This document shows positions 550 to 40,820 of a stretch of DNA of 42,238 bases, piece by piece. The DNA comes from a virus (taxonomy: Duplodnaviria; Heunggongvirae; Uroviricota; Caudoviricetes), in the IMG/VR virus record IMGVR_UViG_2703718851_000004, positions 1 to 42,238 of that record. One strand, 5' to 3'. The stretch's first letter is position 1, and each line of letters starts with the position of its first letter. A program made the position numbers and the translations under genes. The notes below the pieces were generated by a model. That model ran no database searches and was not told the DNA's origin. It saw only the letters and a program-made list of their open reading frames with translations.

Positions 550-912
550 ATGTTAAAACTATTTGCAAAGTACACCTCTATTGGCGTGCTGAACACCCTT
601 ATACACTGGGTGGTTTTTGGTGTATGTATCTATGCCGCGCATACCAATCAGGCTCTGGCAAACTTCGCAGGTTTTGTTGTGGCTGTGAGTTTTAGCTTCT
701 TCGCGAATGCAAAATTCACATTCAAAGCATCAACTACAACGATGCGCTACATGTTATATGTCGGGTTCATGGGAACACTGAGTGCTACTGTTGGATGGGC
801 TGCTGATAGATGTTCACTTCCTCCAATTGTCACTCTTGTCACCTTCTCCGCCATCAGCCTGGTGTGCGGTTTCGTCTATTCAAAGTTCATTGTCTTTAGG
901 GATGCGAAATGA
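550..912 (+). CDS. gtrA: GtrA-family bactoprenol-glucose flippase
   Basis: 120-aa hydrophobic ORF with GtrA-like sequence; first gene of three-gene cassette; stop overlaps gtrB start. Confidence 0.85.
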
Positions 913-1838
913 AGATATCTCTGGTCGTTCCTGTCTTCAATGAAGAAGAAGCGATACCAATTTTTTATAAAACGGTACGTGAATTCGAAGAATTGAAGTC
1001 ATATGAAGTGGAAATTGTTTTCATAAATGACGGCAGCAAAGACGCTACGGAGTCAATTATTAATGCTCTGGCTGTGGCCGATCCGCTTGTCGTTCCTCTT
1101 TCCTTCACCCGTAATTTCGGTAAAGAGCCCGCTCTGTTCGCCGGGCTTGACCACGCAACAGGTGATGCGGTTATCCCGATTGATGTTGACCTGCAGGACC
1201 CGATTGAAGTCATTCCTTATCTCATCGAGAAGTGGCAGGCAGGCGCTGACATGGTCCTGGCTAAGCGTTCTGATCGCTCCACCGACAGCAGACTAAAGCG
1301 CAAATCCGCTGAGTGGTTTTATAAGCTGCATAACAAAATAAGCAATCCGCAGATCGAGGAGAACGTCGGTGACTTCCGCCTGATGTCCCGTGCCGTGGTT
1401 GAGAACATCAAACTGTTGCCGGAGCGCAACCTCTTCATGAAGGGCGTTCTGAGTTGGGTTGGAGGGCGTACTGATGTTGTCGAGTATGCTCGCGCTGGGC
1501 GTGTCGCCGGAGACTCAAAATTCAATGGCTGGAAGCTCTGGAACTTGGCACTTGAGGGCATTACTAGCTTCTCAACCTTCCCTCTTCGCATGTGGACTTA
1601 TATTGGCCTGATGGTCGCCGGCCTGTCGTTTCTTTACGGCGCCTGGATGATTATCGACACGTTGGCTTTCGGTAATGCGGTACGTGGTTATCCTTCACTG
1701 TTAGTATCTATTTTGTTTCTGGGCGGAATCCAGTTAATAGGGATAGGTGTTCTTGGTGAGTACATCGGCAGAATTTACACTGAAGTTAAGCAGCGTCCTA
1801 GGTATATTTTGAAGGGCATTAAAAATGAAAAAAAATAA
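909..1838 (+). CDS. gtrB: GtrB bactoprenol glucosyltransferase (GT2 family)
   Basis: 309 aa; N-terminal GT2 motifs ([22 protein letters not shown]) and C-terminal TM helices. Confidence 0.88.
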
Positions 1839-3279
1839 TACTTATCACATCCCATTTATATTAATAGGGTTGTTTTATTTGCCATTCATCATAAACAATC
1901 AACTTTACGTTGATGATATTTTTAGGGCGCAGAATGGTTTTGATGGGTGGTCTCAAAACGGAAGGCCTTTAGCAGATTTGCTGATGCATCTGCTAATGAT
2001 ATCCTCATCCAAGTTACCTGGTTATGGAATATTTGGACAGGTATTATCAGTAGCAGTAATGTCAATGACAGCAATTTTCTATACTCGTCACATACTTGGT
2101 TCGACAAGCGTGGCAGCGTTAATTTGCGCGTCAGGCTTCGCGCTAAGTCCATTTTATATAGAAAACATGCTCTATCAGTACGATAACCTGCCAATGACGC
2201 TTTCACTTTGTGGTGCGGTTGTTGCTTCTGTCTACGCACTTAAAGAAGACAAAATCTACTTTATTGCATCTTTTATTATCATTGCTTTTAGCGCGGCTTT
2301 ATATCAGACATCAATAAATTCATACATAGCTCTTGTGGCAGTAAACTTAATTGTGAAATTAAAAAAATCTAATGACTGCGCAAAGGAAGTTATTATTTTA
2401 GCTTTAAAAGCAATGGCATCTCTCGCCATTGGCATGATTCTTTATTATTTTATAATAAAGGTTGCTTTCCCGATGACTGGAACAAGAGACCAGGCAATAT
2501 CGTTAGATGCGTCACTTATTGATTACTTTGTAAAAAGAATGGTTAGATTTTATACTTTATTAGAATCAAGTCTATCTATCTATTATGTGGCAATATATTT
2601 ATTGACTTTAGCGTTACTGGTAACAACAACCAAACCAAGAGTTTCGTTTTTAAATATCGCGATAATCATAATCTGTATTTCCGTGGTTGCCATATCACCA
2701 ATAGGAATGCTGGCGATTTTCGGTGAATCAGCCATTGCAGCGAGAATGATGATGGGGGCTGTAGGATTAACAGCTTTAATTTTCACCATGATATCCATAA
2801 GCGAAATTAGTAATAATAAAAAATATTTTGCAATCGCTGTCATCGCAATACCTTTATATGTAATTTCATATGGCTTTTCCTTTGCTATCAAAGAGCAGAG
2901 AATTTATGACAAGTCAATTTTATACCTGTCAATTAATGACATCAGAAATAGCTCAGATTACAATATAAATTCGTACATTGTATATTCTGGCAGGGCGCCA
3001 ATAGCTCCCTTATCGATAAATACTGTAAAAGCATATCCATTAATCTCTACAATGTTGGTTCCAACATATGATTGGACGTCTAGCATGGCTGCCCAGTCAA
3101 TCGACATCCCAAATGTAAAATTCAATTTTGCTAGAGAAGAACAGAAAAAGATAATATCCAATGTATGTGCATCTATAACCAAGCCAATAAAATCCACCAA
3201 TTCTTATTCGATATATTTCAACCAAGAAAACAATGGCTTTTTAATATGGTTAAAAGGAGGAGGCAACACCCCGTGCTGA
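1825..3279 (+). CDS. gtrC: GtrC-type serotype-specific O-antigen glucosyltransferase (polytopic membrane protein)
   Basis: 484-aa multi-TM ORF directly after gtrB, start overlaps gtrB stop; markedly AT-rich relative to flanks. Confidence 0.7.
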
Positions 3280-3312: not shown

Positions 3313-5472
3313 TTACGTCGAGTAGGTAAATGGCGGCTGCTCCTCCAGTGGAACAACTTTTAACCTATTAAGTGAGTAATATGCAGAGTTTCCGGTAAAG
3401 GTGAGAGTCAACACCCCCGTTGTTGAATTAAAGCTTGCAGATGGTGCTGGTATGGTAGATGTTCCAACTAAGCTTCTGCCTTGATATCCAGTAACGCTGC
3501 AAACATTACCCACCAAAACATTAAATCTTAAATCTTGCTGTAATGTTACAGCCACATTTTTCATTAGAAGCCTGCATGAGTATTCTCCCCCTGCCACACA
3601 ATTGCTTACCTGTATATCGAATGTGTTTGCTCCTTGAGCGATTGAAGGTGAACGCATGGTGTACACATCAAGAAGCCCTTTAAATTGGACTGTATAACCT
3701 CTCAACGGCGCTAAAGTATCAGCTATATTTTCTGTAATTGGATGCTCGCAATTTATTTTGATTCCATAACGCCCGAAGCCAAGATCTTTGGTAATCAATT
3801 TAAATGGTGATCCAATCTTCATGTCGTGAACATTGATCTGTGAGATATCAGTCTTGACTACCGCCCCACTTGACAGTGTGTTTCCAGATTGAACAGCAAA
3901 ATCTTTTATATCATGGTTGCAGAAAACACCGAACGTATTAATAGTTGACCCCACGCACTGACACCAAACTCGGTGACCAGTCTCGCTGGCGGCTACATTT
4001 ACACTCTCACTATAACCTCCGAAAACATTAACGTTACCACTATAAAAGAGGGCGAAATCTCGATTGTACCCCTCCCATGTTACTCCGTGCATATTTATGT
4101 CGACACAGTCGTGGGCATAGAGAAAAGTGGTGACATAGGCAATATTTGGTCTATTTGATACATCTCCGGATCTGTGGAACCATTGTGCCGTGCCTTTATC
4201 CCATGTTTGCGATAAATTACCAGTATAATATCCTCCTACCAAGTTTAGTGCCGTAGTGTGGGGTGTTAAAAATGTTGCATATTTAGCGCCTTGTGCAAAG
4301 CAATTCTCTACCGCAGTCCCCCAAGAACCACTTATCCAAAAGCTAACCTTACAGTCATACACTGCAACTCCAATCAGTTTGGCATCCGGAGTCCTCCAGA
4401 TTCTAATTCCCGCCTGCGTATCTGGACGGCCCAATAAAACAATATTCTCTATATATGGTCCATAATATCCAGCACTCAAATACAGCCCATTTTCCACACT
4501 GTTTGTCACTGTATATCTTGCAGTGCCGTCTGATAGCCATGGAGCGGTATCTAGAAGCAATTTATTTACATCCATGGACGTCATAGCAATAATAATTGAG
4601 CATCCTGCGCGTGAATATCTAAAGCCAGACGTTCCTCCCGTGCCAATTACCCTTACATTTGGAGAGAGATAAATAGTGTCATTAATGAAGTATTGAGCAG
4701 TTGGAAAAACAACATCCCCGCCTTGATGTGAGTCATATGAGGCATCAAGGTAAGGGTTTAGATATGAAATCGCAGCATTGATAGCTGGCGCGCAGTCGAA
4801 GGTACTATCGTTAATTTTTGCCCCAAACTCCAACGGACTCACCGTCCTTGCGACATACGCAGAGGATATCTCTCGCTTCCAGCGTCCTGTTCCAGTATTG
4901 CCAGTTGGGTTAATGGTATAGCCTCCGTCATCAGTATCAGTGCTGGTTGAATTCCAGCGGAAATATCCTCCGCCATAACCAGTTCCAAGGTGATAAGAAT
5001 CAACATAGACTCTTCCATTTTCCTTAACTGATGAGTATGCAGTAAATGCTCGTAGATCTGCTATTGATGAGAATGTACCAAATAATGCATAAGAATCAGG
5101 CGCAGACATCTTGGCAAGCCATTCTGCAGAAAACTGATCCGGGTCATACTTCAGCACATTAGGAAAATAGAACTGCTGCACACCGTATGCATCATAAACA
5201 GCCATCGAATGGCCTTGCACAGTTACGAACTTGGCAATCTGTCCGTTATATACCGGGTAACCAGCAGCGTTAATGATGATTGGTTGCGAAACAGGAACGT
5301 GAGATCCGTCTTCATTCTCTACATAAACCTGAATCTGGTTTTCAGTATTTACCGGGTCAGTGTCAATTTTTCCGATATAAATTTTGCCATTGGCTACGGC
5401 TTTAAAAGAACGAGCCATAGTGAAGAGTTGCGAAGGCATCGATACAATCACATTAGCTGTAATATCTGTCAT
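3313..5472 (-). CDS. Tailspike protein; P22-type N-terminal head-binding domain with divergent receptor-binding domain
   Basis: 719 aa; first ~110 residues match P22 gp9 head-binding domain from memory (MTDITANV...[11 protein letters not shown]...LKYDPDQ); last gene of virion module. Confidence 0.88.
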
Positions 5473-22714: not shown

Positions 22715-22790
22715 TGGTGCTGGTTAACGGACTTGAACCGCTACCCATTCGCTTACAAGGCGACTGCTCTACCATTGGAGCTAAACCAGC
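22715..22790 (-). tRNA. tRNA-Thr (anticodon UGU)
   Basis: 76-nt cloverleaf: 7-bp acceptor GCTGGTT/AACCAGC, D-stem GCTC/GAGC, anticodon loop CTTGTAA, T-loop TTCAAGT, encoded CCA; one G-A mismatch at top of anticodon stem. Confidence 0.65.
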
Positions 22791-22795
22791 ATGTT

Positions 22796-22869
22796 TGGCG
22801 GGACAGCGTGGACTCGAACCACGATAAGAAGTTAACAGCCTTCCGTAATGACCTTTATACGACTGACCC
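22796..22869 (-). tRNA. tRNA-like element with Asn-type anticodon loop (possibly degenerate)
   Basis: T-arm CGTGG-TTCGAGT-CCACG, encoded CCA, loop CTGTTAA (GUU); but T-T mismatch in acceptor stem, weak anticodon stem and 3-nt variable region. Confidence 0.35.
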
Positions 22870-33536: not shown

Positions 33537-33633
33537 AATGTCGCTCGTAACTAAACAGGAGCCGACTTGTTCTGATTATTGGAAATCTTCTTTGCCCTCC
33601 AGTGTGAGGGCAATTTTTTTTGATGGAGGATAT

Positions 33634-34602
33634 ATGAGTGAAGTAACAGATTTAGTTGTTATTGAAAAAGCAAATGCAATGACTGTATTTCAGTCTGCCG
33701 ACCAGATTGAAGAAATTCTCCAAAAGGTTGAACGTGAAGTTATGTCCTTTGTGCCTGATATCACAACGGCAAAGGGCAGAAAGGAGATCGCTTCTCTGGC
33801 GTATAAAGTTGCGCAGACGAAAACATATCTCGATGGTCTTGGCAAAGACCTTGTTGCTGAACTGAAGGAAATTCCAAAGCTAATTGATGCCAACCGCAAG
33901 ACAGTGCGCGATCGCCTTGATGAACTGAAAGCCAAGGCGCGCCAGCCTCTTACTGATTATGAGGAGGAACAGGCACGGATTAAAGCCGAAGAAGAAGCTA
34001 AGGCAGCAGCTGAAGCTCTCGCAAAGCAAATTGAGTCTGACCATGAAATAGCGATTTTGATGGATCGCGAATTTGACCGCAAAAGAGAAGAGGCAAGACT
34101 CAAAGTGGAGCAGGAAAAGCGAGAGCATGAAGAACGCTTAAAAAGAGAAGCTGAAGAGAAAGCCAGAGCAGAAGCCGAAGCAAAGGCAAAAGCCGAAATT
34201 GAAGCAGCAGCAAGGCGAGAAGCAGAAGCTAAGGCAGCAGCGGAACGTGCAGAGCGTGAACGCATTGAAGCCGAGCAACGAGCACAGCGCGAAGCAAAAG
34301 AGGCAGCAGAACGAGCTGAAAGAGAAAAGCAGGCGGCAATTGAAGCAGAACGCCGAAAAGCACAGGAGGAGGCTGAACGAATCCGGCGCGAGGCTGAAGC
34401 AAAAGAGCAAGCCAGAATAGCAGAAGAAAAAAGAATCAAGGAAGAAGAAGAGCGTAGAGCAAAGGATAAAGCTCACCGGAAAGAAGTAAATAACAAAATA
34501 CTTGCTGACCTTATCAAGGTTGGTGCATCAGAAGATGTTGCTAAAAATATCATAACAGCCATCGTAAAAGGCGAAGTATTCGCAACAAAAATAACCTACT
34601 AA
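33634..34602 (+). CDS. Hypothetical protein with long A/E/K/R-rich coiled-coil segment
   Basis: GGAGGA RBS before ATG 33634; central ~170 aa of repetitive EAKA/ERAE-type sequence. Confidence 0.7.
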   Translation: MSEVTDLVVIEKANAMTVFQSADQIEEILQKVEREVMSFVPDITTAKGRKEIASLAYKVAQTKTYLDGLGKDLVAELKEIPKLIDANRKTVRDRLDELKAKARQPLTDYEEEQARIKAEEEAKAAAEALAKQIESDHEIAILMDREFDRKREEARLKVEQEKREHEERLKREAEEKARAEAEAKAKAEIEAAARREAEAKAAAERAERERIEAEQRAQREAKEAAERAEREKQAAIEAERRKAQEEAERIRREAEAKEQARIAEEKRIKEEEERRAKDKAHRKEVNNKILADLIKVGASEDVAKNIITAIVKGEVFATKITY

Positions 34603-34758: not shown

Positions 34759-34895
34759 CCATTAATCACCAGATGCTTCGTGCGGCACAAAACAAAGCAG
34801 TAATAGCCAGATTTATTGGTGATTCCAAAATGTGGCTTGAAGCAAATAAAGCGATGAAATCAGCTATCAACCTTCCGTGGTATCGCAGGAAATGA
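34743..34895 (+). CDS. Small protein, possibly Kil-like
   Basis: 50-aa ORF overlapping cIII stop and next start; ...ARFIGDSKMW... weakly reminiscent of lambda Kil. Confidence 0.35.
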   Translation: MRNEIAINHQMLRAAQNKAVIARFIGDSKMWLEANKAMKSAINLPWYRRK

Positions 34896-35050
34896 GTTTC
34901 ACAGATAACTGGTCAGACGAAGAATTCATTCGTCAGATGAAAGAATTAATCGGTAACGAAGGAGATATTCATGTCACTTGCAACCACAGTGAAGGAGAGC
35001 AAGTTACAGAGACGCATGTACACGCAGAAAGCTCTCTGGTATCGCCATAA
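34892..35050 (+). CDS. Small acidic hypothetical protein
   Basis: 52-aa ORF coupled by ATGA overlap to the upstream ORF. Confidence 0.35.
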   Translation: MSFTDNWSDEEFIRQMKELIGNEGDIHVTCNHSEGEQVTETHVHAESSLVSP

Positions 35051-35151: not shown

Positions 35152-35757
35152 ATGAGCAAAGAATTTTACGCAAGACTGGCAGTTATTCAGGAGAATCTGA
35201 ACGCGCCAAAAAATCAGTACAACTCATTCGGCAAATATAAATACAGAAGCTGCGAAGACATTCTTGAAGGCGTTAAGCCGCTACTGAATGGCCTGTTTTT
35301 ATCAATCAGCGATGAAGTTGTGTTGATTGGTGATCGGTATTACGTGAAAGCCACGGCAACTATTACCGATGGCGAAAACAGTCATACGGCAACCGCCCTT
35401 GCACGAGAGGAAGAAAGCAAGAAAGGAATGGATTCTGCACAAGTTACTGGAGCTACAAGCTCTTATGCACGCAAGTATTGCCTCAATGGTTTGTTCGGCA
35501 TTGATGATGCGAAAGATGCAGATACAGACGAGCATAAACATCAGCAGAACGCAGCAGCAAAGCAATCAAAACCATCACCTACACCTGAACAGGTTCTAAA
35601 AGCATTCACTGACGCAGCAATGCAAAAAAACACCGTAGAAGAGCTTAAACAGGCGTTCGCCAAAGCGTGGAAGATGCTCGAAGGCACACTTGAGCAGCAC
35701 AAAGCGCAGGAAGTTTACAACATCAGACGAGACGAATTAGAAGGAGCGGCTGCTTAA
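35152..35757 (+). CDS. erf: Erf single-strand annealing recombinase
   Basis: From MSKEFYARLAVIQENLNAPKNQYNSFGKYKYRSCEDILEGVKPLL..., matches P22 Erf from memory. Confidence 0.85.
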   Translation: MSKEFYARLAVIQENLNAPKNQYNSFGKYKYRSCEDILEGVKPLLNGLFLSISDEVVLIGDRYYVKATATITDGENSHTATALAREEESKKGMDSAQVTGATSSYARKYCLNGLFGIDDAKDADTDEHKHQQNAAAKQSKPSPTPEQVLKAFTDAAMQKNTVEELKQAFAKAWKMLEGTLEQHKAQEVYNIRRDELEGAAA

Positions 35758-36140
35758 TGGCACATTCGATTACTGTAAGACTAAACAAACCTGCAAGAGA
35801 GTTTCAGGCCGGGGAAAATATCGGATTCAACATCCGTGCTGGCGTTCAGTATTACGATCGCCAGACAAAAAAGAAAGAATGGACAAACTACAGCGCCGTT
35901 GTATTTGCCAAGCCGGGAGCGCAAGCGGATTACTATCGTAGCGTTCTGGTTGAAGGAGGCATTGTAGAAATTACCGGAGAAAACATCAGGGTTGATGTTT
36001 ATCAGGGGCAAAATGGTCAATCAATCACTCTTGAATTACTGAATGCAAAGATTGGATTTGCAACTTCAGGAAACAGCCAACAGCAGCAAAGTAGCAATCA
36101 TCAAAATCATCCTGAATACGACGATTCAATTCCCTTCTAG
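35757..36140 (+). CDS. Short single-stranded-DNA-binding protein with SSB-type acidic C-terminal tail
   Basis: 127 aa; Q-rich linker and C-terminal EYDDSIPF; AAGGAG RBS; start overlaps erf stop. Confidence 0.65.
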   Translation: MAHSITVRLNKPAREFQAGENIGFNIRAGVQYYDRQTKKKEWTNYSAVVFAKPGAQADYYRSVLVEGGIVEITGENIRVDVYQGQNGQSITLELLNAKIGFATSGNSQQQQSSNHQNHPEYDDSIPF

Positions 36141-36163: not shown

Positions 36164-36457
36164 ATGCCAGCGCCTCTGTATGGTGCGGATGACCCGCGCC
36201 GCTGTTCCGGCAATTCCGTATCGGAGGTGCTGGATAAATTCAGGAAAAACTACGACCGGATAATGTCGCTACCGCAGGAAACGAAAGAGGAAAAGGAATT
36301 TCGCCATTGTATATGGCTTGCAGAGAAAGAAGAACGCGAGCGAATTTACCAGACATCAATCCGACCATTCCGCAAAGCCACATATACCCACTTCCCTGAA
36401 ATTGACCCGCGCCTGCGTAATTACCGCTCACGCTATGGCGCTATCAGTAATGACTGA
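36164..36457 (+). CDS. Hypothetical protein
   Basis: 97-aa ORF in coupled early-left gene string. Confidence 0.5.
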
Positions 36458-36632
36458 GGAATTTACCATGAGAGGACTTGCATACAATCCCGGCATTCTT
36501 CCGGCAGAAATGATTATTCGCCAACGCGTAAAGCCAATGCCATCGAGAGAGGAATTGCTAAAGAGAAATTCTTTTCCGTCAGTGAATCAAAACAAATATC
36601 TGAATGCGATGTGGCGGAGTGGGAAGAAATGA
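36450..36632 (+). CDS. Hypothetical protein
   Basis: 60-aa ORF from [15 protein letters not shown]...; ATGA overlaps with neighbours. Confidence 0.4.
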
Positions 36633-37111
36633 AACAAATGACACTAATTGAGATGGATGGATTTCTGAAAGGTAAATGCATCCCAAGTGATTTAAAGGTT
36701 AACGAAACAAACGCTGAATATCTGGTGCGTAAATTTGCTGAAGCGGAGGCCAAGTGCGCGGCGCTGGCAGCGGAGAATGCGGGGCTGAAGTCTGGCGCTA
36801 TGGGCGAAATCAAGGTTATCAACCGTGGAGGGCAGGCATATTGCGTAAAAGATGGAGTGCAAGTTAATCCCATGTATGCAAGAGGGTGGAATGACTATCG
36901 CGCAAAGTCTCTGCAATCAGACACCCCAGCCACCGATGCTTTCCTGGCTGAAGTACGGGCGCAGGGGGTAGAGATGTACGCAGATAACCTCGACAACGGA
37001 GCAGACGACGCAGAACGAGGTGGTTTTGATGATGCCGTTAAGTTTCTACGCAGTGAAGCGTCTGGTGTACGTTTGTTCGCCGACCAGCTTCGCAAAGGAG
37101 GCAACCAGTGA
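36629..37111 (+). CDS. Hypothetical protein
   Basis: ORF from [15 protein letters not shown]...; start overlaps previous stop. Confidence 0.55.
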
Positions 37112-37653
37112 GTGTAACGGTTGAAAAGATTGATGTGTTGTCATTCGTTATAACCGGTGCAGAGCGACTAGATCCGGTTCGAGTGATGATTGAAAACTAC
37201 GAACCTGGTAAGGGAAGAATCACCATCACCTGCTACGGAAAAGCGTGGACTGCGGCTTGGTTTGCTATGGGCGGTGATGATGTGCAGACGTTCATTAAGC
37301 GGGTCAGCAACGAGTATCTAATCGGCTATTTCGACCCTCAACTGCGAAGCACGGTCGACGATGACAACGATGCAAATCTGCTTTTCGTGAAGTCAGAAAT
37401 CATAAAGTTACGAAGAGAGAGAGAAATCGACGCGGTACAGGCTCGAGAAATGTGGGACGAGGCGGAAAACGCCGATGACGTAAAAGAAAGCTGCTGTTGT
37501 TTCGGTGTCGGTAACAAACTGCTGAATCTCTTTGGTGATGATCCGTGGTATGCCGACTGGCCAACGGCACCAAACCCGAAATACCAGTATCTGGAACGCG
37601 TACTTAATGCAGTGAGAGACGGTCTTAAGCAAATAGAGAAGGTGGAACCATGA
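37108..37653 (+). CDS. Hypothetical protein (GTG start)
   Basis: 181-aa ORF with acidic central region and CCC motif; GTGA overlap with upstream stop. Confidence 0.55.
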   Translation: MSVTVEKIDVLSFVITGAERLDPVRVMIENYEPGKGRITITCYGKAWTAAWFAMGGDDVQTFIKRVSNEYLIGYFDPQLRSTVDDDNDANLLFVKSEIIKLRREREIDAVQAREMWDEAENADDVKESCCCFGVGNKLLNLFGDDPWYADWPTAPNPKYQYLERVLNAVRDGLKQIEKVEP

Positions 37654-37949
37654 CTGTATGTCTTATTGATAAACGTCGACGTGGGCAACAAATACCATCT
37701 GTTGAAATGCCGAATCACACATGGTTTTGCGTACTTGATATCGATGGTATGGATGCGTTGGTTAACACTCGTCATTACTGCGATACCGCAACAGCTACTC
37801 CGGCGAAAGCAAAGAAAATGGCTGATCTGATAGAAAACTGGACTCCACCTGATGGTTGGTGCAATGGGAATGATCGAGATTGGCATGAAAAAATGAAGGG
37901 CTATATCTGCGATTTCTTACGTAAATGCAACGGATTCAGGGTGATGTGA
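37650..37949 (+). CDS. Hypothetical Cys-containing protein
   Basis: 99-aa ORF, ATGA overlap with upstream gene. Confidence 0.5.
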   Translation: MTVCLIDKRRRGQQIPSVEMPNHTWFCVLDIDGMDALVNTRHYCDTATATPAKAKKMADLIENWTPPDGWCNGNDRDWHEKMKGYICDFLRKCNGFRVM

Positions 37950-37950
37950 C

Positions 37951-38649
37951 ATGAACAAGATTGACTATCAGGCACTGCGTGAAGCGGCAGAGAAAGCCGG
38001 TGAAGATAAGTGGCAGGCTAAAAAAATAAATGGTGATTTTTTCGTTATTCGTCACGGTAGTTATACAAGACAGCATGGCTACACATCGTATCAACCCATT
38101 GCGGAGATTGATTGTAAGCCAGTCCGGGATTTTGTTGCCAAGGCTAATCCGGCTACCGTGCTGGCACTACTGGATGAACGGGAAAGGAACCAGCAATACA
38201 TCAAACGCCGCGACCAGGAGAACGAGGATATTGCGTTAACGGTAGGGAAGCTGCGTGTTGAGCTGGAAGGCAAAGACAGCAAAATAGCCAATCTTACCGC
38301 CGAACGCGATGCTCTTCGTGAAGGTGAGATGGGCGACGCTAGGCATAGCAACACACGGGCCGCAGCTGATATCTACTTCCAACTGGTCGAGGAGTGCGAA
38401 ATTCCTGCTGGCGGATCTCTGGTCGAGTACGTTGACGATATGCGCGAGAAGCTGGAAGCCGCAGAGAAGCGCATTGCTGAGCTGGAGTTGCGGGAGGTTG
38501 TGCTTCCGCAATGCTATAGCATGTTGCATCGCGTCGATTTTGACGAGCCTTACCACACTGAAATGGTTTACAGGCAGCATCAGGTTCTTGAGGCACTGCA
38601 CAACGCTGGAATAAACGTCACCGAATCAGGTAAAGGAGAGGCATCATGA
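37951..38649 (+). CDS. Ead/Ea22-like early protein
   Basis: 232 aa; N-terminal MNKIDYQALREAAEKA and central coiled coil typical of Ea22-like proteins (from memory). Confidence 0.55.
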   Translation: MNKIDYQALREAAEKAGEDKWQAKKINGDFFVIRHGSYTRQHGYTSYQPIAEIDCKPVRDFVAKANPATVLALLDERERNQQYIKRRDQENEDIALTVGKLRVELEGKDSKIANLTAERDALREGEMGDARHSNTRAAADIYFQLVEECEIPAGGSLVEYVDDMREKLEAAEKRIAELELREVVLPQCYSMLHRVDFDEPYHTEMVYRQHQVLEALHNAGINVTESGKGEAS

Positions 38650-39164
38650 GCACTATCACAAGAGAATGGCTGCAGCAGGCTATCAACGATTATGAAAGCG
38701 TTCGTGATGAGCTTCCTTTCGGGCTTGATGATTACCAGGGGAATATCCTGGCTGCCCTGCGTATCGCACTGGCATCGCTGGAAGCAGAGCCGGTGGCGTG
38801 GAAGGTAACATTCACGCAAATTGACCGTGAATATAACACGTTCACTGGTATGTATTCTGACAAAGCAGAAGTCGAACGGTGGGTGCGGCTGCATAAAGCA
38901 TGTAATTTTCGGGCAGATATAACACCGCTTTATACCGCCAAGCCAGTGCCGGTAACTCCGGGTGGTTGGATAAGCTGTAGTGATCGAATGCCGGAAGACA
39001 CCAAAATGTTACTGGCATTTAGTCAAGGTGAAATCGTGGCCGCATATTGGAACTGGGTTGTAAATCCAATTGATTACAAAAAATATAGAGCTTTCACGTA
39101 TTTATCAGGAAATATCTTGGATGACGTAACTCACTGGATGCCGCTACCAGAGCCTCCACTTTGA
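38646..39164 (+). CDS. DUF551-like phage protein
   Basis: 172 aa; C-terminal HWMPLPEPP motif characteristic of the DUF551 family (from memory). Confidence 0.6.
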   Translation: MSTITREWLQQAINDYESVRDELPFGLDDYQGNILAALRIALASLEAEPVAWKVTFTQIDREYNTFTGMYSDKAEVERWVRLHKACNFRADITPLYTAKPVPVTPGGWISCSDRMPEDTKMLLAFSQGEIVAAYWNWVVNPIDYKKYRAFTYLSGNILDDVTHWMPLPEPPL

Positions 39165-39260
39165 AAGCGAAGCTTATACATATCTTTTACATCAGCAATC
39201 TATTGTTAATCTCCAATCAATGTTACGTTGTCATCTCACTCATGCTTTGGAGGTAGTGAT

Positions 39261-39440
39261 ATGTCTTGTCCAAAATGCGGTTCTGGAAATATTGCAAAAG
39301 AAAAAACAATGCGTGGATGGTCTGGTGATTATGTGTGCTGCGATTGCGGATACAACGACTCTAAAGACGCATTTGGAGAGCGTGGTAAAAACGAGTTTGT
39401 TAAAATTAATAAAGAACGCGAAGGCAACGAAAAAAGCTAA
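39261..39440 (+). CDS. Small zinc-ribbon protein
   Basis: 59 aa with CPKCGSG ... CCDCGYN motifs; GGAGG RBS 7 nt upstream of ATG. Confidence 0.6.
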   Translation: MSCPKCGSGNIAKEKTMRGWSGDYVCCDCGYNDSKDAFGERGKNEFVKINKEREGNEKS

Positions 39441-39503
39441 TTTATTTATTCATATATGAAAACAATGTAACCAATATTCGAATTGAAGAACTGAAAGAAC
39501 ACC

Positions 39504-39527
39504 AAACCGCCTGATGGCGGTTTTTTC
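39504..39527 (+). terminator. Intrinsic terminator upstream of xis
   Basis: Stem ACCGCC/GGCGGT with loop TGAT followed by TTTTTT. Confidence 0.7.
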
Positions 39528-39553: not shown

Positions 39554-39772
39554 ATGTACTTGACACTTCAGGAGTGGAACGCTCGCCAGCGACGTCCAAG
39601 AAGCCTTGAAACAGTTCGTCGATGGGTACGCGAATGCAGGATATTCCCTCCTCCGGTTAAGGATGGAAGAGAGTATCTGTTCCACGAATCAGCGGTAAAG
39701 GTTGACTTAAATCGACCAGTAACAGGTAGCCTTTTGAAGAGGATCAGAAATGGGAAGAAGGCGAAGTCATGA
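39554..39772 (+). CDS. xis: Excisionase Xis
   Basis: 72 aa MYLTLQEWNARQRRPRSLETVRRWVRECRIFPPPVKDGREYLFHESAV..., matches lambda Xis from memory; overlaps int start. Confidence 0.95.
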   Translation: MYLTLQEWNARQRRPRSLETVRRWVRECRIFPPPVKDGREYLFHESAVKVDLNRPVTGSLLKRIRNGKKAKS

Positions 39773-40820
39773 GCGCCGGGATTTACCCCCTAACCTTTAT
39801 ATAAGAAACAATGGATATTACTGCTACAGGGACCCAAGGACTGGTAAAGAGTTCGGATTAGGCAGAGACAGGAGGATAGCAATTACTGAAGCAATACAGG
39901 CAAACATTGAGTTATTTTCAGGACACAAACACAAGCCTCTGACAGCGAGAATCAACAGTGATAATTCTGTTACGTTACATTCATGGCTTGATCGCTACGA
40001 AAAAATCCTCGCCAGCAGAGGAATCAAGCAGAAGACACTCATAAATTACATGAGCAAAATTAAAGCAATAAGGAGGTGCCTGCCTGATGCTCCACTTGAA
40101 GACATCACCACAAAAGAAATTGCGGCAATGCTCAATGGATACATAGACGAGGGCAAGGCGGCGTCAGCCAAGTTAATCAGATCAACACTGAGCGATGCAT
40201 TCCGAGAGGCAATAGCTGAAGGCCATATAACAACAAACCCGGTCGCTGCCACTCGCGCAGCAAAATCAGAGGTAAGGAGATCAAGACTTACAGCTGACGA
40301 ATACCTGAAAATTTATCAAGCAGCAGAATCATCACCATGTTGGCTCAGACTTGCAATGGAACTGGCTGTTGTTACCGGGCAGCGAGTTGGTGATTTATGC
40401 GAAATGAAGTGGTCTGATATCGTAGATGGATATCTTTATGTCGAGCAAAGCAAAACAGGCGTAAAAATTGCCATCCCTACAACATTGCATGTTGATGCTC
40501 TCGGGATATCAATGAAGGAAACACTTGATAAATGCAAAGAGATTCTTGGCGGAGAAACCATAATTGCATCTACTCGTCGTGAACCGCTTTCATCCGGCAC
40601 AGTATCAAGGTATTTTATGCGCGCACGAAAAGCATCAGGTCTTTCCTTCGAAGGGGATCCGCCAACCTTTCACGAGTTGCGCAGTTTGTCTGCAAGACTC
40701 TATGAGAAGCAGATAAGCGATAAGTTTGCTCAACATCTTCTCGGGCATAAGTCGGACACCATGGCATCACAGTATCGTGATGACAGAGGCAGGGAGTGGG
40801 ACAAAATTGAAATCAAATAA
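39750..40820 (+). CDS. int: Tyrosine integrase Int
   Basis: 356 aa, near-identical to lambda Int from memory (MGRRRSHERRDLPPNLYIRNNGYYCYRDPRTGKEF...). Confidence 0.97.
   Translation: MGRRRSHERRDLPPNLYIRNNGYYCYRDPRTGKEFGLGRDRRIAITEAIQANIELFSGHKHKPLTARINSDNSVTLHSWLDRYEKILASRGIKQKTLINYMSKIKAIRRCLPDAPLEDITTKEIAAMLNGYIDEGKAASAKLIRSTLSDAFREAIAEGHITTNPVAATRAAKSEVRRSRLTADEYLKIYQAAESSPCWLRLAMELAVVTGQRVGDLCEMKWSDIVDGYLYVEQSKTGVKIAIPTTLHVDALGISMKETLDKCKEILGGETIIASTRREPLSSGTVSRYFMRARKASGLSFEGDPPTFHELRSLSARLYEKQISDKFAQHLLGHKSDTMASQYRDDRGREWDKIEIK

Follow-up and report, generated by a model that had tools for sequence, protein, structure and literature searches.

Which functions are carried by the eight small genes that lie between the recombination genes and xis in a P22-like prophage, and are they directed against host defenses, toward the choice between lysis and lysogeny, or both? 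We examined this question for positions 36164-39440 of the IMG/VR virus record IMGVR_UViG_2703718851_000004, whose full stretch of 42,238 nucleotides (nt) is referred to below as the window. An earlier note on this DNA had described the block as eight translationally coupled early genes, all of unknown function, to which only Ea22-like and DUF551-like labels could be applied. The reading that we favor, with a probability of about 70%, takes the block to be the hypervariable "ea" segment, which corresponds in position to the lambda exo-xis region and forms the distal part of the PL early-left operon in a P22-like prophage that has a lambda integration module. Its genes are less anonymous than had been supposed: by close homology gene 1 is Abc2, a structurally characterized protein, gene 3 falls in the EaE/Oad2 family, and six further family assignments exist besides the two labels. 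The features of the block are as follows (lengths of the proteins in amino acids, aa; pI, isoelectric point).

36164..36457, + strand: gene 1, Abc2, anti-RecBCD protein 2, 97 aa (Pfam, PHROG and PDB matches)
36468..36632, + strand: gene 2, DUF2737 protein, 54 aa, pI 11 (Pfam; the earlier start at 36450 gives 60 aa)
36629..37111, + strand: gene 3, mosaic variant of the EaE / HK97 gp37 / Oad2 family, 160 aa (PHROG, tblastn, identity and slot)
37108..37653, + strand: gene 4, Phage_phiTE_072 (PF26211) family protein, 181 aa, GTG start, pI 4.6
37650..37949, + strand: gene 5, DUF7739 protein, 99 aa (Pfam)
37951..38649, + strand: gene 6, Ead/Ea22-like protein, 232 aa, with a conserved N-terminus and coiled coil and a non-lambda C-terminal region
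38646..39164, + strand: gene 7, EaA-like protein with a C-terminal DUF551 domain, 172 aa (Pfam, BLASTP)
39165..39260, no strand: 96-nt AT-rich spacer, which breaks the chain of overlaps (sequence, junction table)
39261..39440, + strand: gene 8, EaG, Cys4 zinc-ribbon protein, 59 aa (identity, invariant Cys)

All eight open reading frames (ORFs) of 36164-39440 are on the + strand, run without internal stops at or near the positions where the earlier note had placed them, and cover 97% of the region. Counting + strand ORFs of at least 54 aa, the coverage was 98%, compared with 22.5% +/- 9.7 (maximum 59%) in 500 shuffles, and the chain is therefore far beyond chance. The same figures bear on the idea that some or all of these ORFs are decaying remnants or chance frames without function. 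Frameshifted variants of EaG and partial DUF551 genes, found in the databases and in EC556, would fit such decay. However, besides the coverage, each of the eight has homologues conserved in many phages or prophages, with full-length copies and invariant residues across genera for every ORF, AlphaFold2 (AF2) models of genes 4 and 5 are confident, and Shine-Dalgarno (SD) sites precede most starts of the block. The idea is largely refuted and retains next to no probability.

Are the genes also chained by overlapping stop and start codons, as had been proposed? For most of the block they are. True 4-nt overlaps join genes 2 and 3 (ATGA), 3 and 4 (GTGA), 4 and 5 (ATGA), and 6 and 7 (ATGA), and genes 5 and 6 are separated by 1 nt; an overlap or a gap of at most 1 nt is thus found at five of the seven junctions. 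The two outer junctions depart from this pattern. An 8-nt overlap between genes 1 and 2 is conditional on the start of gene 2 at ATG 36450, which has no SD upstream. ATG 36468 is the most likely start, leaving a 10-nt gap after gene 1, because it is preceded by a GAGGA SD, because the DUF2737 profile aligns with the 36450 version only from residue 7, and because it yields 54 aa, the length annotated in HK620, HK75 and HK446. At the other end, the proposed overlap coupling of the eighth gene (39261) does not hold, since the AT-rich gap that separates it from gene 7 measures 96 nt and gene 8 has a GGAGG SD of its own.

The surroundings bear out the placement of the block in the early-left accessory region of a lambdoid, here P22-like, phage between the recombination module and xis. 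The window is almost wholly a P22-like prophage, with P22 coat, P22 portal, a tailspike head-binding domain and, at the left end, gtrABC. From ~31.6 kilobases (kb) onward the + strand carries, in this order, genes for a cI-type repressor, N, Ral, cIII, Kil, a Gp33-like protein, Erf and an SSB-like protein, then the eight genes, Xis and Int. The chromosomal gene ybhC lies beyond int and is adjacent in related E. coli genomes as well; we take it to mark the neighborhood of lambda attB. The region is the "ea" accessory segment of the PL operon, carried by a P22-like prophage whose lambda int/xis genes lie next to ybhC; regions of this kind are known, and what is new is the mosaic combination. The earlier note was also right that counter-defense genes sit in regions of this type. 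The neighboring features used in the argument are listed here.

34892..35050, + strand: Gp33-like small protein, 52 aa (88% identical to HK446 gp33)
35152-35757, + strand: Erf recombinase (Pfam ERF, 1e-43)
35757-36140, + strand: Gp31/SSB-like protein, 127 aa, directly upstream of the block (99% identical to HK446 gp31)
39504..39523, + strand: G+C-rich hairpin followed by a T-run, terminator-like, between gene 8 and xis (terminator scan)
39554-39772, + strand: lambda-type xis (Pfam Exc, 3.9e-41)
39750-40820, + strand: lambda-type int (lambda integrase arm-binding and catalytic domains)
22715..22790, - strand: tRNA-Thr(UGU), outside the block (ARAGORN; 100% identical to HK446 tRNA-Thr(UGU))

The 127-aa Gp31/SSB-like protein gave a weak match to the TIGR00621 ssb model and has the C-terminal residues DDSIPF. 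Homologues of the 52-aa Gp33-like protein carry the mislabel 'recombinase' in RefSeq. The tRNA-Thr(UGU) gene forms a pair with tRNA-Asn(GUU) at 22715-22869 (- strand); compared with the HK446 pair, tRNA-Asn(GUU) has lost 1 nt immediately 3' of its GTT anticodon, and one substitution is found in the short stretch that separates the tRNAs.

A sequence scan found no sigma-70-like promoter inside the block, the 96-nt gap included; Rfam gave no RNA family match, and a repeat scan found repeats at chance level only. The hairpin has a perfect 8-bp stem followed by the T-run and was picked up on both strands. It lies in DNA 99% identical to that of HK629, a phage with an annotated lambda cII site adjoining the excisionase gene, and the hairpin may limit non-antiterminated read-through into xis/int. 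These results can be set against a further view of the block, as a defense or superinfection-exclusion cassette expressed by the prophage to protect the lysogen. Prophage ends and accessory regions often carry defense genes, and this region is hypervariable. However, the block belongs to the PL operon, which is under repressor control, and contains no promoter-like site of its own, none of its proteins matches any PADLOC defense model (the only match was to a coiled coil, at 12.8 bits and an expect value, E, of 0.0086), and two of its members are counter-defense relatives. We regard such a cassette as very unlikely.

What can then be said of the individual proteins? Gene 1 matches the Pfam family Anti-RecBCD_p2 (PF11043) over residues 1-97 of 97 (6e-64, 212.7 bits versus a cutoff of 25) and belongs to phrog_656, 'abc2 anti-RecBCD'. 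It is ~90% identical over 97 of 97 residues to the 'Anti-RecBCD protein 2' of PDB entries 8B1T/8B1U (E 2.2e-58) and 97-99% identical to Abc2 of HK75, HK446, HK620 and EC556. Close homology shows it to be an Abc2 protein, a presumed RecBCD modifier (RecBCD hijacker), and both the structure of Abc2 with RecBCD and the mechanism have been described (PMC9836394). By homology to the characterized proteins, gene 1 would bind RecC and alter the activity of RecBCD, reprogramming it. Gene 2 matches DUF2737 (PF10930; 3.8e-31, 107.2 bits versus a cutoff of 25) and is 96-100% identical to the 54-aa proteins HK620 hkaI, HK75 gp29 and HK446 gp28. A literature search, its results dominated by papers on potassium channels, found nothing about DUF2737 or about DUF7739, the family of gene 5.

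Gene 3 comes immediately after the DUF2737 gene in the Abc2 locus, the slot that its counterparts also take in HK446, HK75 and HK620. It was assigned to phrog_614, and tblastn retrieved 231 phage records, in which the gene is labeled 'EaE' in SE1, Gally and others. The protein is 41% identical (E 6e-37) to HK446 gp27 (Oad2), 60% identical to HK75 gp28 and 58% identical to the HK620 counterpart, and this moderate homology plus synteny shows it to be a member of the EaE/Oad2 family. According to a July 2026 preprint, HK446 gp27 (Oad2) binds the abortive tRNase OLD of P2 and inhibits it, blocking tRNA cleavage and defense; Oad2 is related to P22 EaE, and fusions to HNH or EaD/Ea22 modules occur; Gp33 of the HK446 locus, a possible RecBCD manipulator, triggers OLD toxicity; and HK446 tRNA-Thr(UGU) rescues phages from OLD (bioRxiv 10.64898/2026.07.10.737580). 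The identity of 54% that the preprint gives between Oad2 and its HK75 homologue was reproduced here for HK446 gp27 and HK75 gp28, which fixes HK446 gp27 as Oad2. Oad1 is an unrelated vibriophage protein.

In a four-way alignment of gene 3 with Oad2 and the HK75 and HK620 proteins, residues 1-38 and two short motifs are common to all. Gene 3 is missing a 21-residue segment, its residues 56-97 are unique, and residues 113-160 form a C-terminus of the HK75/HK620 type, with which the Oad2 C-terminus aligns only over the last ~10 residues. The alignment shows gene 3 to be a natural chimera of a shared N-terminus, a unique middle and an HK75-type C-terminus, and such a chimera could help to map which module sets OLD specificity. 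The likeliest role for gene 3 would be to inhibit directly an abortive-infection nuclease of the OLD type (ABC-ATPase/TOPRIM), which the RecBCD manipulators of the phage itself (Gp33, Abc2) would trigger if it were left uninhibited, and the OLD-resistant tRNA-Thr(UGU) in the same prophage would provide a second layer. In view of the HK75-type C-terminus, we give inhibition of an OLD-family nuclease by gene 3 roughly one chance in three. A Gp33-like trigger, Abc2, a relative of Oad2 and a tRNA-Thr(UGU) exactly matching that of HK446 are found together here, which suggests that this phage lineage is shaped by OLD-type immunity.

The homologues of gene 4 form 223 clusters with an Enterobacterales-wide distribution, and a precomputed PF26211 tag is present in all 120 listed as well as in the 99%-identical cluster representative. 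Three Cys are invariant in the family, and the AF2 model (predicted local distance difference test, pLDDT, 84.5) consists of an N-terminal five-stranded sheet and a helical domain. Gene 5 matches DUF7739 (PF24881) with 76.7 bits versus a cutoff of 27, is 91-92% identical to HK75 gp27, is not acidic, and also gave a confident AF2 model (pLDDT 86.5). The description of this 99-aa protein as "Cys-rich" does not reflect a conserved property, Cys93 being the sole invariant Cys of the DUF7739 family; on the same ground, the idea that its Cys residues form a metal site was ruled out. Fold searches (Foldseek for gene 5) found no significant structural neighbor of either protein among solved structures.

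The DNA of genes 4 and 5 is jointly present in 463 of 5426 complete E. coli genomes (~8%), including 106 places on plasmids. The gene 4 family recurs in the same slot, between recombination genes and xis, in Klebsiella prophages, and on a Salmonella contig of 105.9 kb (~106 kb), a phage-plasmid-sized replicon, the phiTE_072 gene is flanked by Ead_Ea22 and DUF7739 genes. In the Klebsiella prophages the phiTE_072 gene was seen between an MT-A70 methyltransferase gene and a DksA/TraR zinc finger gene, just before xis. Predicted fusions of phiTE_072 with DUF7739, of DUF7739 with DUF2737 and of DUF7739 with Abc2 were each seen in single assemblies (P0004, P0158, P0159, P0163, P0174); either frameshifts across the ATGA overlaps or a different order of the genes probably accounts for them, and they point to other neighbor relations among these cassettes. 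The phiTE_072/DUF7739/Ead_Ea22 trio travels across lambdoid prophages and ~100-kb replicons and makes a reasonable candidate for anti-defense screens. We propose tentatively, and at somewhat less than even odds, that at least one of gene 4, gene 5 and EaG is a new type of counter-defense or host-takeover factor and that gene 3 is perhaps an allele-specific inhibitor of a non-P2 OLD-family nuclease. In that case the anti-OLD equipment of the prophage would have three layers: an inhibitor linked to the trigger, a tRNA-Thr that is resistant, and one more cassette.

Genes 6 and 7 may connect the block to phage development. Gene 6 matches Ead_Ea22 (PF13935; 2.5e-26, 93.3 bits versus a cutoff of 27) and is 63% identical to HK620 hkaG; its residues 1-112 are 49% identical to residues 1-79 of lambda Ea22, with no alignment past residue 112. 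It has no PDB sequence match at E <= 1, the C-terminal domain (CTD) of Ea22, for which a nuclear magnetic resonance structure exists, included. Gene 7 matches DUF551 (PF04448; 3.7e-21, 76.2 bits versus a cutoff of 22) over residues 107-171 and is 31% identical to HK620 hkaE. PHROG profiles join a gene 6-type N-terminus to the body of gene 3 or of gene 7, as in phrog_60, where it is fused to gene 7 sequence, and these joins agree with the modular architecture described for Ea22 (PMC10834534). Genes 6 and 7 would be Ea22-type scaffolds with swapped C-terminal modules, in a family linked to the lysis-lysogeny decision.

This link raises the alternative that the block mainly tunes lysis-lysogeny and host physiology (cell cycle, SOS and oxidative-stress response), as the exo-xis genes of lambda and Stx phages do. 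The Ead_Ea22 signature and the match of gene 6 to the lambda Ea22 N-terminus point in this direction, as do the developmental effects documented in the exo-xis literature; Ea22 favors lysogeny, and the DUF551 module is present in the Stx-phage Ea22 variant V2 and in YfdS (PMC10834534). However, only the N-terminal third of one gene is common with lambda exo-xis, and BLASTP searches with all eight proteins gave no match at E <= 1e-3 to orf60a, orf63, orf61 or ea8.5. Genes 1 and 3 have counter-defense relatives, and the two roles are not mutually exclusive. As the main business of the block, we consider developmental tuning possible and somewhat unlikely.

Gene 8, an EaG of the P22 type, is 98-100% identical to HK620 hkaD and to the 'Eag protein' of EC556, and only 17 relatives were found among 1.84 billion representatives; C3, C6, C26 and C29 are invariant in the family. 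Several frameshift variants of EaG, at A-runs of the 39261-39459 region, exist in databases. The C-terminal tail of the Salmonella phage Eag (P0136, 'Salmonella phage 22') corresponds to an alternative reading frame, which is open here as well (ORF 39220-39459 of the window).

Could EaG be a zinc-ribbon protein of the Lar/RalR type, that is, a restriction-alleviation factor against type I restriction-modification systems or a small DNase toxin, placed upstream of xis like ralR in Rac, with its gene order recT-ralR-rcbA-xisR-intR? Its best Pfam match is Lar_restr_allev (PF14354, 7e-5), a precomputed PF14354 tag is attached to some members of its family, and its four Cys align with those of RalR. 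BLASTP against Rac RalR gave 30% identity at E 0.001, a weak match limited to the ribbon, and hhalign gave E 3.5e-4 with a negative YdaE control. However, the Pfam score of 23.4 bits is below the curated cutoff of 28.6, the hhalign probability is only 37% over 24 ribbon columns, and the generic TFIIB zinc ribbon is matched by as many family members as Lar. The prophage, moreover, already encodes Ral. We judge a Lar/RalR-type function of EaG to be unlikely.

How conserved is the assembly as a whole? Among the phage records and complete E. coli genomes searched, none contains at least 80% of the region in one place. Genes 1, 2 and 8 are 94-100% identical across HK620, HK75, HK446 and EC556, genes 3, 6 and 7 are 31-63% identical, and five related loci carry differing cassettes between the same anchors. 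PDB sequence searches with genes 3-8 gave nothing meaningful, and NCBIfam has no family for genes 1-7. The accessory-region tables of Silas et al. 2025 list Abc2/DUF2737/DUF551 neighborhoods; none of the peptide strings from genes 3, 4, 5 and 8 turned up in the supplement files searched, some of which were truncated.

In the reading that we favor, of an "ea" segment of the PL operon, the gene order suggests that the block would be transcribed from PL under N antitermination within minutes after infection or induction. Given their tight packing and internal SD sites, genes 1-7 would be translated as a near-continuous series, with possible translational coupling, and gene 8 from its own ribosome-binding site. 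The products would be small, in several cases acidic, and would work by binding to proteins of the host, and we infer that genes 2, 4, 5 and 8 encode further cassette-like binders of this sort. The conserved flanks (genes 1, 2 and 8) around a divergent interior would let recombination swap cassettes in and out.

Several points weigh against this reading. Stop/start overlaps permit translational coupling and do not prove it. The lambda exo-xis genes are documented as modulators of lysis-lysogeny and host physiology rather than as anti-defense factors. For genes 4 and 5, "host-protein binder" would be guilt by association, because they have no significant structural neighbors. The four-way alignment gives gene 3 no Oad2-type C-terminal module, and HK75 is OLD-sensitive despite its 54%-identical Oad2 homologue (10.64898/2026.07.10.737580); since the C-terminus of gene 3 is of the HK75/HK620 type, gene 3 may lack any inhibitory effect on P2 OLD. 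The activity of Oad2 is itself known from a single preprint.

The region type is textbook and its presence is not news; the value added here is a sharper target list. Two of the eight ORFs could already be accounted for, but not all have well-characterized functions, and a reduced form of the earlier claim survives; as had been said, the proteins with the least explanation are those of 181 aa and 99 aa and the zinc-ribbon protein. What remains of interest is the chimeric gene 3, the apparent set of anti-OLD tools in this prophage, and the phiTE_072 and DUF7739 proteins with their lack of structural matches.

Two other parts of the window may be recorded. Between ral and cIII, a 354-aa ORF (33538-34602, + strand) encodes a Glu/Lys/Ala/Arg-rich protein with a very long predicted coiled coil; searches of Pfam, NCBIfam and PADLOC gave no match for it, and its translation may really begin at an internal Met. 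At 550-3279 (+ strand), a low-GC (35-40%) cassette of gtrA, glycosyltransferase-2 and GtrII genes stands beside the tailspike gene (3313-5472, - strand) and is likely an O-antigen-modifying (seroconversion) moron.

How does the locus compare with known systems? With Rac Lar/RalR it has in common a small Cys4 zinc-ribbon protein encoded between recombination genes and xis; unlike in Rac, the similarity of gene 8 is sub-threshold and confined to the ribbon, and Rfam found no antisense RalA-like RNA. The likeness to lambda exo-xis (orf60a, orf63, orf61, ea22, ea8.5) lies in the operon position, the early expression logic, the Ea22 N-terminus and coiled coil in gene 6, and the xis-int module together with the sequence upstream of xis. 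Lambda has Gam where this prophage has Abc2, and gene 6 is without the Ea22 CTD.

The HK446/HK75 locus has the same order Gp33-Erf-Gp31-Abc2-DUF2737-EaE-family. The HK446 proteins Gp33, Gp31 and Abc2 are 88%, 99% and 98% identical to those found here, the tRNA-Thr(UGU) is identical, and HK75 gp27 is 91-92% identical to gene 5. In contrast, gene 3 is only 41% identical to HK446 Oad2, from which it differs by another C-terminal module, a unique middle and a 21-aa deletion, and xis follows after one or two genes in HK446 and HK75, whereas this block has five more genes.

The "ea" region of P22-like phages is represented by HK620 hkaJ-hkaD (in P22, abc2, eaE, eaD, eaA and eaG), and HK620 matches only 46% of this DNA. 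Compared with it, the present locus adds the phiTE_072 and DUF7739 pair, is without hkaF, has divergent versions of gene 3 (58%), gene 6 (63%) and gene 7 (31%), and is joined to a lambda-type rather than an IntS-type integration module. The two loci nevertheless share the position between recombination genes and xis, the anchor order abc2, DUF2737, EaE-like, Ead, DUF551 and EaG, the same 96-nt gap before eaG, and genes 1, 2 and 8 that are 97-100% identical.

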